From contig JAHPZI010000007.1 in NCBI GenBank assembly GCA_019058295.1, positions 111,565 through 143,766 of the forward strand: DNA of 32,202 bases. Reading direction: 5' to 3'. How positions within the stretch are numbered: the first letter of the stretch is position 1; every line of letters starts with the position of its first letter. The notes beneath the pieces were generated by a model. That model saw only the letters and a program-made list of their open reading frames with translations, did not search any database and was not told where the DNA came from. A program made the position numbers and the translations under genes. This document shows positions 874 through 5,112 of the stretch, piece after piece. Origin of the DNA: Promethearchaeota archaeon (GTDB lineage Archaea > Asgardarchaeota > Lokiarchaeia > Sigyniarchaeales > SOKP01).

Positions 874-2403
874 TTAAAATTTGTCTGCATCAGAATACCA
901 TTCAGGAAACCATCTATAATGTTCTTTTGGAAATGCTTTCTGTAATCCTTTATAGTTTGCTTTCACTAATACTATTTTACCTTGTCTATCTTGATGAGTT
1001 ACAATTAATCCTTGTTGTTCAAGGGATTCAAAGGTTTTCCTTATCTTAGAACGACTTCCACCGATATCTGCTCTTACATCGTCAGGAGTCATATAAATTC
1101 CTGGGTTTACTTTATAATCATGTGCGATAACTTTTAATAGGTTCTCGTCATTAATTTCTAGTCCTTTAAATTGGGATTCTCTATTTGATAAAACAGGAGC
1201 ATTCACCTCCTCGTTCCATCGATATTTTAGCATTTTATTATAGGTTGGAAGCAATGCAGCGAATCGATAGATGATCATCTTTTGTACCTCTGTAGTGCCA
1301 GCAACAATTTCGGCAATTTTTCCCTCACGCAATAAGCGCTCTGCAGGATAAAATTTTGTTAATCCATCGCCCCCCATAGTTTGGATTGCTATTGTCCCAA
1401 CTTCCCTTATCCATTCACAAATCATTAGTTTTGCAATAGAAACATCAACCATCGGCTCCTTTCCCTGATCCATCTCATAAGCGCAATGATAAGAAAAGAC
1501 TCTTCCCATCCTATATCGTGCGATAATATCTGCAATATTATTTTGAATTCCAGGGAATTGATTCAAAATCCGTCTAAACTGTACTCTTCTCTTAGAGTAA
1601 TGAAATAATAGAGTAATTAAGTCTTTTAAAATGCCACTAAAAACTGCGGCAGCAATTAAGCGTTCGAAATTCAAACCACTCATCATTACATTCCAGCCTT
1701 TTCCTACTGCACCAAAACGATTCTCATCAGGAACTCTTACATGATCAAAATCTAAATAACCATTGGGTACATTATCAAAACCAATCAAAGGATTTATCTT
1801 TTCTAATGAAAATCCTGGCATGCCTTTCTCCAAAATAAAAGCAGAAATATGGCTATATTCTTTTCTATCAGCGGGATCTTCACTAGTTTTTGCATAGATA
1901 AAATAACGATCACTAACCCCTGCACCAGTGATGAATCTTTTTTTACCATTTATAATCCATTCATCACCCTCTTTCACAGCTGTAGTCATAACATTCGCAG
2001 CATCACTCCCTGCGAAGGGTTCCGTTATACAAACGGCTCCCAATTCTTTACCTTGTGCCAGTTTTGGTAACCACTTTTGCTTCTGTTCTTCCGTTCCATA
2101 TCTTAAGATTTGCTCTAAGCCCGCTAACATACTTACGGTAAACACGTGCCCAACAGCATACAATCGTCCCAACTGCTCAGCAACAATGCAAGCTCCCGTT
2201 GCACCTAATTCTAAGCCGCCATATTCTTTAGGGATTCCAGCTCCAAAATAACCTGTTTTGGCAACTTTCTTTACAAGAGGCCACGGAAATTTTTTATTCC
2301 AGAAATAGGTTTCTGCTTCTTCAACATTTTCCTCCGCAAATTGGGCTACTTCTTCAGCAACTCGCTTTTGTTCATCAGTCCACCAAAAAAATGGTTCACT
2401 CAT
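874..2403 (-). CDS. Acyl-CoA dehydrogenase (IVD/LCAD-type catalytic arrangement) with C-terminal winged-helix-like extension
   Basis: Motifs IPKEYGG, CITEPFAGSD, INGKKRFITGA, GLNFERL, RVQF, GGDG and EIVAGTTEVQK. The ATG at 2403 is preceded by GAGGA and is preferred over the TTG at 2418. Confidence 0.93.
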   Translation of the reverse strand: MSEPFFWWTDEQKRVAEEVAQFAEENVEEAETYFWNKKFPWPLVKKVAKTGYFGAGIPKEYGGLELGATGACIVAEQLGRLYAVGHVFTVSMLAGLEQILRYGTEEQKQKWLPKLAQGKELGAVCITEPFAGSDAANVMTTAVKEGDEWIINGKKRFITGAGVSDRYFIYAKTSEDPADRKEYSHISAFILEKGMPGFSLEKINPLIGFDNVPNGYLDFDHVRVPDENRFGAVGKGWNVMMSGLNFERLIAAAVFSGILKDLITLLFHYSKRRVQFRRILNQFPGIQNNIADIIARYRMGRVFSYHCAYEMDQGKEPMVDVSIAKLMICEWIREVGTIAIQTMGGDGLTKFYPAERLLREGKIAEIVAGTTEVQKMIIYRFAALLPTYNKMLKYRWNEEVNAPVLSNRESQFKGLEINDENLLKVIAHDYKVNPGIYMTPDDVRADIGGSRSKIRKTFESLEQQGLIVTHQDRQGKIVLVKANYKGLQKAFPKEHYRWFPEWYSDADKF

Positions 2404-2651
2404 GTTTTTTATCCTCAACTAATTTGAATTTAAGATTTTAATTATTATGTTATTAGCTTTTAAGACAATAATTTTGAAACCTTCATTTATTAAAAATTTT
2501 GAGAGTTCTTAATAGCTCTTTTATGTAAAAAAAGATTTTTTTTAAAAAGATTATTATCCTAAATATTCAGACACGTAATAATCAGAAATTATAGTGATAT
2601 AAAATTTCAATTCCATCATCAGTAAGGGAAGGTCCAAGAACCACAAATACA

Positions 2652-4217
2652 TTGGCAAAAAAGCGATATCTTATCCTCTATTTTATGATAATAACATTTA
2701 GTGCTCAACCAACACTAATATGGTTTTGGTATTTCTGGCAATTCTTTCCTGAATTCAATTTATTGTTTTTCATTCTTTTTCCGTTTATTTTCTTCATAGG
2801 AATTATAATTTTAATTATGAGTTCAATTATAACAGCAAAAATATTCTTAATTTTTATTAACGCAATCCATAAACCAAGAGAGGGTGTTTTCAATAGAGAT
2901 AAGAAAGATAAAGATTATTGTTATTGGAGTTTAAGAGCTGTTATCAAAAAATGGCCAATTTGGTTAGCTCGCCAATTAAATCTGCCAATTCTCGAAACTA
3001 TCGCCTTAAAAATTTTTGGTGTTAAAACAAATAGATTTAATTCTTTAAATGAAGGGTGGGTTGATTGTGAATTTATTGAATTCGGGAAAAATGTTAAAAT
3101 TGGTCAAGGAAGTGTAATAATGTCTAATATTTTAATTGCCGATAAACTGATTATAAAAAAGGTAGTTATAAAAGATAATGTTATAATCGGCGCACATTCT
3201 TGTATAGCTCCTGGAACTACTGTAGAATCTAATACTATACTTGGAGCACTTACCATGACAATAATTAATCAACATCTTGAAGGCAATTCTATATATAACG
3301 GAAGCCCAGCAAAAAAAATTATGCCAAATAAACCAATAGAAAATAAAGAAGTTATTGAAAATCAAATCTTTAAAAAAGATTCTGAGGAACAGTTCGATAA
3401 GATTGAGCTAAAAGCAGAAAACAAAGCTTTGAGTGTCCCTTATCAAGCATATATATCGGCAGGTTGGTTTATTGCGGGAGGATCTTATATAATACCTAGT
3501 TTTCTTTTTATCTTCTTTTTTTTTGGTTTCTTGATCCCTAATCTTCTCATAATTCCATTTTCTCTTAAATTACTCTTGGATCTGAAAATAATATTTATTT
3601 TACTTATCACTCCACTAATTTTTGTTGGTATATATTTGTTACATCTATTTTTTGTAGCTTTATTTACAAGATGGATTTATAAATTTGCAGATAAAAGAGG
3701 TCCTGCCCAAGGTCTTTTTGATAGAAATTTAACTGAATCTTCAACTATGTTAGATTATTATCATTTTAGATCTTTTTTAATGAAATATCCAATTTTCTCT
3801 TTTATACGTTCTCCTTTTCCATGGTTGGTGAAGTGGGAGTTGAGGTTTATTGGTTCAAATAAAATAGGAAAGGGCACTGTTATTGAAGAATCTTATATTC
3901 ATAGTCATATTAATTTTGGAAAAGATTGCTATTTAGGAACTTTTGCTCACATATCTAATCACGTTGTAGATGGTATTTACGGAGAAGAAAATTTATGTTT
4001 CTTTGGAGCTAAAATTGGAGATAATTGTGTCTTTAACTCATTAACGGGAGCTTTACCAGGCTTGGAAATAGGAGATTGTGCAACTTTTTTCCTAACTGCA
4101 ACAACTATAAAGTACGATAAACTTGGAGATAATGGTATATATACAGGATTTCCAATTAGAAGGCTCAAAAAAGAAGAAATTATTAAATTAACCGGGGTGG
4201 AATATAATGGAAAATAA
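2652..4217 (+). CDS. Membrane protein with two TM-hairpin plus left-handed beta-helix (hexapeptide) acyltransferase-like modules
   Basis: Two hydrophobic hairpins, each followed by hexapeptide repeats (FGKNVKIGQGSVI, IKDNVIIGAHSCIAPG; IGKGTVI, FGKDCYLG, IGDNCVF). The modules end in GSPAKK and GFPIRR. TTG start. Confidence 0.8.
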   Translation: MAKKRYLILYFMIITFSAQPTLIWFWYFWQFFPEFNLLFFILFPFIFFIGIIILIMSSIITAKIFLIFINAIHKPREGVFNRDKKDKDYCYWSLRAVIKKWPIWLARQLNLPILETIALKIFGVKTNRFNSLNEGWVDCEFIEFGKNVKIGQGSVIMSNILIADKLIIKKVVIKDNVIIGAHSCIAPGTTVESNTILGALTMTIINQHLEGNSIYNGSPAKKIMPNKPIENKEVIENQIFKKDSEEQFDKIELKAENKALSVPYQAYISAGWFIAGGSYIIPSFLFIFFFFGFLIPNLLIIPFSLKLLLDLKIIFILLITPLIFVGIYLLHLFFVALFTRWIYKFADKRGPAQGLFDRNLTESSTMLDYYHFRSFLMKYPIFSFIRSPFPWLVKWELRFIGSNKIGKGTVIEESYIHSHINFGKDCYLGTFAHISNHVVDGIYGEENLCFFGAKIGDNCVFNSLTGALPGLEIGDCATFFLTATTIKYDKLGDNGIYTGFPIRRLKKEEIIKLTGVEYNGK

Positions 4218-5112
4218 GGATAAAATGAAAAATATCGAAGATTTCGATATAACAAAATATCCAATAACTACGAACGCTTTTACTTGGACGCCAATGGCAA
4301 TATTTCTTTATTGTCTATTACATATATTATCGTTTATGATCCCAAGTCTTTTAATTTTAACATTTTACACAATTGCAATGAGTGGAAATTTTTCAAACTG
4401 GTGGAGAATCCTGTTTATAATCATAGATATAATGGCATGGTGGGGTATTTATATTCTCTGCAGTTTACTCTTTGGTAAACTATTCTTATCAATTCTAAAA
4501 TTGATTCATAAACCCAGAGAGGGTCTTTTTAAGATTGATAAAAATGATAAGGATTATTCTTTCTACTGTCTTAGGATATGTGTTAAAAAATTTATTTTCT
4601 GGATTTGGAATAATTTTGCATTTCCTTGGGCATCCAACTTGGCTTTTAAATTATGTGACATGAAGGCAGACTTTAAAAGCACAATGTTCGATGGATGGAG
4701 TGATGTAGAATTTATTGATTATGGCGAGAGTATAATATTGGGGCAAGGAGCTGTAGTACTTTCTAGTATGATAATCGGAGATCATCTTTTAATTAAAAAA
4801 GTAATAATTGGAGATCATGTTATTATAGGTGGAAATGCTATTGTCGCACCTGGAACTGTAATAGGAAAAGGTACTACTCTAGGAGTATGGGCAACAACTC
4901 ACGTCGCACAAGTTTTAGAACCGGATTGGATTTATATTGGGAGTCCTGCGCGAAAATATCAATCTACTCGAGAAATGGTTGAAGAAAGTAAGAAAATTGC
5001 TATAAGAAGAATGGTTGATACTGGCGAAAGAATCCCTTTCGATGTGGATAAGTTTATAAAAAGAGATAAGAAACACAGATTAAAATATAGTAGATTGAAA
5101 AAAATTAAATGA
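4207..5112 (+). CDS. Membrane protein with one TM-hairpin plus LbH acyltransferase-like module (paralog of the upstream gene)
   Basis: HKPREGLF..DKDY, IGDHVIIGGNAIVAPGTVIGKGTTLG and GSPARK align with module 1 of the upstream gene. Overlaps that gene by 11 nt. Confidence 0.8.
   Translation: MENKDKMKNIEDFDITKYPITTNAFTWTPMAIFLYCLLHILSFMIPSLLILTFYTIAMSGNFSNWWRILFIIIDIMAWWGIYILCSLLFGKLFLSILKLIHKPREGLFKIDKNDKDYSFYCLRICVKKFIFWIWNNFAFPWASNLAFKLCDMKADFKSTMFDGWSDVEFIDYGESIILGQGAVVLSSMIIGDHLLIKKVIIGDHVIIGGNAIVAPGTVIGKGTTLGVWATTHVAQVLEPDWIYIGSPARKYQSTREMVEESKKIAIRRMVDTGERIPFDVDKFIKRDKKHRLKYSRLKKIK

Follow-up and report, generated by a model that had tools for sequence, protein, structure and literature searches.

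A split three-module membrane beta-helix system in Lokiarchaeia, predicted to form a pseudo-trimeric acyltransferase

The stretch of DNA analysed here, hereafter the window, comprises 32,202 nucleotides (nt) of a Promethearchaeota archaeon genome of the Lokiarchaeia (GCA_019058295.1, our genome G000; positions 111565-143766 of contig C7, JAHPZI010000007.1), with ~30% GC, on a contig of 144 kb. It carries two overlapping genes, A and B, whose products together contain three homologous modules, each combining a transmembrane (TM) hairpin with a left-handed beta-helix (LbH); we refer to these modules as alpha and gamma, which are fused in A, and beta, which makes up B. With moderate confidence, we propose that A and B form a 1:1 pseudo-trimeric membrane enzyme with one active site, located in gamma, which would carry out acyl transfer from an acyl-coenzyme A (acyl-CoA) donor to a membrane-associated acceptor. 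The system resembles the C-terminal polymerisation domain of Pls/PosA synthetases, the least understood part of those enzymes, and differs from them by lacking adenylation and thiolation (PP-binding) domains.

Homology among the three modules is far above chance: in pairwise BLASTP, with A split at residue 262, the alpha module (A1) aligned with B at 35% identity over 249 amino acids (aa; E 1e-51), the gamma module (A2) with B at 26% identity (E 5e-13), and A1 with A2 at 21% identity (E 6e-12). All three follow one plan, consisting of a TM hairpin, a P..G.F motif, two helices and the LbH. The motif reads HKPREGVF at aa 73-80 of A, GPAQGLF at aa 350-356 of A and HKPREGLF at aa 101-108 of B, and the modules end in GSPAKK, GFPIRR and GSPARK, respectively, of the general form G.P(A/I)(K/R). 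In the AlphaFold2 (AF2) model of A, alpha has TM helices at aa 6-31 and 37-72, further helices at 87-108 and 112-121, and an LbH at ~124-225; the corresponding elements of gamma lie at aa 264-299 and 311-348, 364-385 and 392-400, and ~403-500. In B, hydropathy places TM segments at ~aa 27-59 and 66-101, followed by an LbH at ~165-250 and a basic C-terminal tail. An earlier interpretation based on the letters alone (the sequence-only reading) had described two genes overlapping by 11 nt, three homologous modules, motifs of the P.xG.F and terminal GxP types, six TM helices and three LbH domains; open reading frames (ORFs) and BLASTP agree with the gene and module layout, the motifs are found at the positions claimed, and the helix count is matched by four long helices in A and two TM segments in B. 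Scans of A and B against Pfam and NCBIfam returned LbH families only, with Pfam matches confined to hexapeptide families; Hexapep (PF00132) matched A with 45.9 bits (cut-off 27) and B with 26.4 bits, slightly below the cut-off. An LbH fold is also what the strand pattern of the AF2 models and the Foldseek matches given below indicate. The overlap of the two genes suggests translational coupling and equal dosage. Coordinates are collected in Table 1.

Table 1. Features of the window discussed in the text (position 1 is the first nucleotide of the window).
Feature	Position	Strand	Basis or remark
Gene A, alpha-gamma module fusion	2652..4217	+	ORF, TTG start, 521 aa
Alpha module (A1), aa 1-262 of A	2652..3437	+	BLASTP, consensus, AF2
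Gamma module (A2), aa 263-521 of A	3438..4214	+	Predicted catalytic module
His437 codon, gamma motif SNHVVDG	3960..3962	+	Candidate general base
Gene B, beta module	4207..5112	+	ORF, ATG start, 301 aa
A-stop/B-start overlap, 11 nt	4207..4217	+	ORF coordinates
Acyl-CoA dehydrogenase (ACAD), divergent neighbour	874..2418	-	Pfam
Ras/Roc-type small GTPase, 191 aa	5231..5806	+	
ORF after the GTPase, 710 aa	5989..8121	+	No Pfam match

Beyond the window, three conserved subfamilies can be distinguished among the modules: alpha (A1-like), gamma (A2-like) and beta (B-like), each with signature residues of its own in the subfamily consensus sequences. Matches were present in 31 of 31 related genomes searched, and ORF calling in 30 fetched loci distinguished two layouts. 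Type I, the layout of the window, has beta after an alpha-gamma fusion. This fusion occurs in 15 of 19 genomes of family f1, with full-length orthologues of A that are 50-93% identical in those 15, and beta adjoins it in all 12 type I loci fetched, so that the co-occurrence of A and B on which the sequence-only reading depended holds across related genomes. An overlap of 8-14 nt between the two genes recurs in 8 of the 11 other type I loci (L018, L019, L022, L023, L025-L028) and measures exactly 11 nt in six; other starts were called in L020, L021 and L024. In type II, gamma, beta and alpha are three genes in constant order, often in several copies, with gamma and beta fused in loci L042, L044 and L046. 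The alpha-gamma-beta order is a cyclic permutation of gamma-beta-alpha. Every sampled genome of families f1 and f2 contains such gene sets, several per genome, and across the order the subfamilies are always inherited together.

Fusions in a much larger sequence space follow the same order. A profile built from 59 modules and searched against 1.84 billion representative proteins retrieved 140 proteins at E<=1e-30. Representatives scoring well for a subfamily showed no fusions other than alpha-gamma, gamma-beta and alpha-gamma-beta, all in keeping with a single cyclic order; P0156, P0162 and P0219, three representatives with weak scores, deviate from it. The complete alpha-gamma-beta fusion exists naturally in four proteins (P0122, P0270, P0271 and P0307), all annotated 'hypothetical protein' and all from Loki/Promethearchaeota metagenome-assembled genomes (MAGs).

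Relatives of B that are 60-99% identical occur in many Asgard MAGs. Sampling 151 genomes across the phylum gave strong matches in 25 of 25 genomes of family f1 and 2 of 2 of family f2, three other families showed weaker matches only, and single genomes held up to 16 modules. The system is a lineage-specific, multi-copy feature of the Lokiarchaeia order to which the window belongs and, for Asgard biology, represents a conserved and expanded predicted membrane enzyme. The genome of the window itself carries a split paralogous set (L128; contig C28:160894-163631, minus strand) of gamma (299 aa), beta (299 aa) and alpha (303 aa), with genes 9-17 nt apart and a gene order kept in many relatives, together with partial sets: a gamma-like and beta-like pair on contig C20, two modules on C1 and a lone gamma-like gene on C14. 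In family f2, loci L039 (G026:C1) and L040 (G019:C28) contain gamma and a single alpha/beta-type gene only; the product of the latter is 422-434 aa long, is extended at its C-terminus and branches beside beta in our tree, and these loci look like a two-gene stage preceding the alpha/beta duplication. Tandem arrays with several gamma/beta/alpha sets on one contig were also seen (G129:C48:427-15681 and G077:C27:8972-29399).

Structure prediction yielded a confident single body for the fused chains. Using an alignment composed of fusion proteins only and checked for coverage of all three modules (A4), AF2 modelled the 797-aa natural alpha-gamma-beta fusion with a mean predicted local distance difference test (pLDDT) score of 85.7 and a predicted template-modelling score (pTM) of 0.86; protein A of the window, with an alignment containing 43 orthologues and paralogues, reached a pLDDT of 87.8 and a pTM of 0.85. 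Each module runs from two long helices through a short strand and two helices into the beta-helix. A published model of PosA's C-terminal domain shows six TM helices, which are bent, and three LbH domains of five turns each in approximate threefold packing, with every TM pair separated from its LbH by two helices and a strand (PMC10522769), and the secondary-structure order of the Asgard models agrees with it. Taken together, the pTM values and the likeness to PosA suggest that alpha, gamma and beta pack into a ring.

Among known structures, the single module comes closest to acyltransferases. Foldseek searches with the soluble part of one module gave maltose and galactoside O-acetyltransferases (MAT/GAT/LacA; 1OCX, 3IGJ, 1KRU) as best matches, with a probability of 1.0, ~186 aligned columns, target TM-scores of 0.55-0.64 and 12-18% identity, the shared part being a helical N-terminus followed by an LbH. 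The MAT/GAT/LacA enzymes are acyl-CoA-dependent trimers with active sites at the subunit interfaces; they differ from the Asgard system in being soluble homotrimers with three equal active sites and no TM hairpin. Sequence searches of the PDB with A, B and gamma returned generic LbH enzymes only, a search with a Pls protein found adenylation-domain structures only (7WEW) and none of the C-terminal domain, and a homologue query of Protein Atlas gave generic 'acetyltransferase' clusters only. In the literature searched, no paper dealt with this Asgard system or its stand-alone forms, and no solved structure of the Pls C-terminal domain was found.

The distribution of one histidine sets gamma apart from its two partners. 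Relatives with a single module, described below, carry a His with an acidic residue 3-4 positions further on in 20 of 20 cases aligned to the module profile. The same column holds His437 in gamma, Asn159 in alpha and Ser187 in beta, and His437 is invariant across the 10 window-type orthologues aligned. Among proteins with three modules, the family His is kept only in the third module of Pls (C3, QTHLFEDR), the second module (M2) of bacterial stand-alone triples and Asgard gamma, with the exception of one bacterial triple that has it in all three modules; the gamma His aligns with that of Pls C3 in hhalign. The ring has three fixed subunit types and, as only gamma retains the family His, probably one active site, in which His437 may act as the catalytic general base; alpha, with Asn159 at the His column, is predicted to be non-catalytic.

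In the mechanism that we envisage, three hairpins with six TM helices would anchor the A:B complex in the membrane, and three unlike LbH domains (alpha, gamma and beta) would surround a pseudo-threefold axis on the cytoplasmic face, an orientation suggested by the positive-inside rule because of the N-terminus MAKKRY and the K/R-rich segment after TM2. Gamma, with His437, would be the sole active site, and alpha and beta would act as structural or substrate-binding partners. As in LbH acyltransferases and the Pls C-terminal domain, an amine or hydroxyl would be acylated by a pantetheine thioester, with acyl-CoA as the most likely donor. The acceptor would probably be membrane-associated; candidates include lipid head groups, lipid-linked glycans and polyamine-like molecules.

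The choice of donor follows from a genome-wide search for free adenylation and carrier domains, which found 16 AMP-binding genes, all located outside the 144-kb contig of the window, and no match to PP-binding or ACPS (carrier domain and phosphopantetheinyl transferase, respectively) in a genome that is 79% complete. With neither a carrier domain nor a phosphopantetheinyl transferase found, acyl-CoA is the likeliest donor, and the claim of the sequence-only reading that no adenylation or carrier domain lies nearby agrees with these counts. The divergently adjacent ACAD gene that the same reading had pointed to was recovered by Pfam. ACAD genes neighbour 9 of the 12 type I loci; eight of these belong to one genus, which makes the association weak evidence for an acyl-CoA link. 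At type II loci, a DUF1295 membrane protein is adjacent in four cases, and PHP, MBL, PAP2 or hydrolase genes are found elsewhere. Overall, such hints lean towards lipid chemistry, without identifying the acceptor. In the ACAD of the window, ~120 additional residues at the C-terminus show a weak TrmB-like winged-helix match (E 0.028).

Several observations weigh against this proposal. In a second alpha-gamma paralogue clade, 9 of 43 aligned gamma modules have Gln instead of the family His (NQLWD), which would mean that the His can be dispensed with or that part of the sets lack activity, a caveat for its role as an essential base. The three-way packing leans on pTM and on a paralogous fusion in which identity to the modules of the window is 51% for alpha, 30% for gamma and 36% for beta. 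Asgard neighbourhoods vary (ACAD, DUF1295, PHP, MBL, PAP2, alpha/beta hydrolase, nitroreductase) and indicate no substrate, and at 79% completeness the absence of a carrier protein or phosphopantetheinyl transferase from the genome is not proven. In alignment A5, made up of alpha-gamma fusion paralogues (e.g. P0126, P0278 and P0285), some Gln-bearing rows have a His in the 'IGxHS' turn of alpha, in an inconsistent pattern.

We then turn to the likeness to Pls/PosA synthetases, which make poly-lysine-type antimicrobial polymers. TIGR02353, the model of the Pls/PosA nonribosomal peptide synthetase terminal domain, is the top NCBIfam match for B and the third for A, with 38.0 and 40.0 bits, respectively, against a cut-off of 423.1 (695 positions). 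A and B each match model positions ~130-233 only, in the LbH part, and the natural triple fusion P0122 reaches 54 bits. Profile comparison extends the similarity considerably. When 19 Pls/PosA-type proteins of ~1300 aa, nine of them NCBI-named 'Pls/PosA family', were cut into modules C1, C2 and C3, hhalign matched alpha to the pooled Pls modules with a probability of 99.0% (E 4e-18, 217 of 248 columns), gamma and beta to the same pool with 98.4% and 97.8%, and gamma to C3 over 200 columns. The similarity spans the TM hairpin, the helical segment and the LbH and is therefore specific and whole-module, rather than a matter of generic hexapeptide repeats.

Whole-module similarity does not extend to membership. 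In a 9x9 matrix of profile scores among Asgard, Pls and bacterial modules, the values within lineages (alpha-beta 528, alpha-gamma 208; C1-C2 233, C1-C3 236; bacterial M1/M2/M3 ~440) exceed all those between lineages (58-173). A quick IQ-TREE maximum-likelihood tree of 75 modules separates Asgard alpha/beta/gamma, Pls C1-C3 and bacterial M1-M3 into three clades, with SH-aLRT (Shimodaira-Hasegawa-like approximate likelihood-ratio test) values of 98, 95 and 92, respectively, each neighbouring different single-module proteins. Since scores are highest within each lineage and the clades are separate, the three-module ring arose at least three times, and comparison of the sequences indicates that the likeness of the Asgard system to Pls is parallel evolution from single-module ancestors by independent triplication. 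The aligned His had hinted that gamma might be orthologous to Pls C3 through one ancient triplication; the score matrix and the tree led us to reject this. Far below the TIGR02353 cut-off and in a clade of its own, the system is not a member of the Pls family. The picture drawn by the sequence-only reading, a 2+1 pseudo-trimer similar to the Pls terminal domain but lacking adenylation and thiolation domains, stands.

The common ground with the Pls/PosA C-terminal domain comprises three repeats of TM hairpin, strand, two helices and LbH, one predicted pseudo-threefold body, and a conserved His in only one of the three modules. Whereas Pls/PosA is a single chain, the Asgard system is split 2+1 or, in paralogous sets, into three genes; it is archaeal, independently triplicated and present in several paralogous sets per genome. 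Bacteria possess a further form. Stand-alone triple-module proteins recovered in the representative search (P0193, P0197, P0238, P0252 and P0221) share with the Asgard system three TM-hairpin and LbH modules, no adenylation or thiolation domains in the chain, and an invariant His in one module, M2. The Asgard module profile matched them with a probability of 99.4% (hhalign, E 3e-21, 186 columns, from TM2 through P..G.F to the terminal GxPA). They differ in being single chains with modules more alike (~440, compared with 190-530 among Asgard modules), in forming their own clade and in standing closer to Pls on TIGR02353, with 157-184 bits over three stretches that include TM regions. P0221 (960 aa) has a short-chain dehydrogenase/reductase domain ahead of its triple-module membrane LbH.

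Simpler relatives complete the picture. The 20 single-module proteins compared above, which were retrieved with the bacterial alignment, are ~210-300 aa long and come from bacteria, Poseidoniales and other archaea. In the seven that were scanned, TIGR02353 ranked first or nearly first among the NCBIfam matches. Bacterial neighbourhoods of single-module genes contain TPR, ThiF/nitroreductase, glycosyltransferase, GDSL lipase, MFS and OEP genes, with no recurrent partner. The genome of the window also encodes a distant single-module relative (G000:C18:51253-52344, minus strand; 363 aa) with four TM segments before one LbH and a His in the catalytic-loop region.

The locus belongs to a large, unnamed family of predicted membrane-anchored beta-helix acyltransferases. 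Bacteria and other archaea have its single-module form, Lokiarchaeia have predicted heterotrimers from two or three genes as well as fusions, and bacteria also have stand-alone triples. Comparison across these forms singles out one His as a candidate for catalysis and offers a small system, free of carrier domains, in which to study the fold. The role in Asgard archaea may lie in lipid or envelope modification, which would be relevant to the archaeal-to-eukaryotic membrane transition. A bolder reading, which we consider doubtful, is that the alpha/gamma/beta rings are stand-alone, carrier-independent polymerases or lipid-modifying machines, with a different substrate for each paralogous set, and that together with their single-module relatives they represent an unrecognised enzyme family, the source of the Pls polymerisation domain that bacteria assembled independently; in that case they might make an archaeal polymer of the cell envelope, or an acylated membrane lipid, of a new type.

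A more literal analogy with Pls would make A and B a stand-alone polymerase that iteratively condenses an activated amino acid or other monomer, with the polyamide leaving through the TM bundle and the monomer provided in trans by one of the adenylating enzymes of the genome. Its appeal lies in the shared module architecture and whole-module profile homology with the Pls/PosA polymerisation domain, the single His-bearing module of three, and the 16 AMP-binding genes of the genome. A bacterial triple offers a genomic precedent: in a Propionivibrio MAG (L047:4636-12004), genes for an MMPL transporter, an AMP-binding enzyme of 566 aa and a triple-module LbH protein of 781 aa follow one another on one strand, with the LbH gene directly behind the other two; no carrier domain was seen in the N-terminal 154 aa of the LbH protein. 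Likewise, the paralogous C20 locus lies near a 550-aa ORF (C20:82372-84024), downstream and on the same strand as gamma-beta, with DUF1295, DUF6512 and UvdE genes in between; this ORF has no Pfam, NCBIfam or PDB match, shows an ANL-like 'HTSGTT' motif read by eye, and may be an unrecognised adenylating enzyme. However, searches of the genome gave neither a PP-binding nor an ACPS match, the contig of the window lacks an adenylating gene, the Asgard triplet stands outside the Pls clade and far under the TIGR02353 cut-off, and these archaea have no known polymer. We therefore regard a polymerase of this kind as unlikely.

Another explanation holds that A, B and perhaps each module are independent homotrimeric membrane acetyltransferases and that their adjacency merely reflects tandem duplication. 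LbH acyltransferases are normally homotrimers, single-module relatives of ~220-260 aa are widespread in bacteria and other archaea, and the genome of the window contains incomplete sets (C20, C1 and C14), all of which would fit. Strict co-inheritance in fixed order speaks against it, as do fusions that, among well-scored representatives, join different subfamilies and never copies of the same one, and the loss in alpha and beta of a His kept by every single-module relative. Moreover, a homotrimer of the two-module protein A would contain six beta-helices, which does not suit a threefold LbH bundle, and the fused chains are predicted as single bodies with high pTM. Independent homotrimers, named by the sequence-only reading as the outcome that would undo its proposal, accordingly appear quite improbable in view of the alpha-gamma, gamma-beta and alpha-gamma-beta fusions and the lack of the conserved His in alpha and beta.

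Finally, a non-enzymatic or non-acyltransferase heterotrimer, serving as a structural or assembly module or as a gamma-carbonic-anhydrase-like unit comparable to CA/CAL of plant and protist complex I, is very improbable: gamma-carbonic-anhydrase and CA/CAL chains do occur among the PDB sequence matches, catalytic degeneration seems to affect two of the three modules, and Gln takes the place of His in some paralogues, but the subfamily consensus sequences have at most one conserved His per LbH and no three-His metal site, CoA-dependent O-acetyltransferases match the fold best, gamma and all 20 single-module relatives examined share a conserved His-x-x-acid motif, and no recurrent partner complex is encoded nearby. 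As an analogy only, the CA/CAL heterotrimer resembles the pseudo-trimeric enzyme that we favour in being a membrane-attached LbH assembly of diverged paralogues with degenerate sites; it differs in its metal-binding His-triad chemistry, its lack of TM hairpins of its own and its place within complex I.

Among the remaining neighbours, the small GTPase gene directly downstream of B keeps that position only in the closest relative, and the 710-aa ORF follows it on the same strand. Directly upstream of the C28 gamma gene lies a 450-aa ORF (C28:163973-165325) for which Pfam, NCBIfam and the PDB gave no match; a paralogue with 29% identity to it lies on contig C10. The 450-aa ORF has LAGLIDADG-like motifs discernible by eye (LLAEGHL, GFFDGDG) and may be a homing-endonuclease-like gene.

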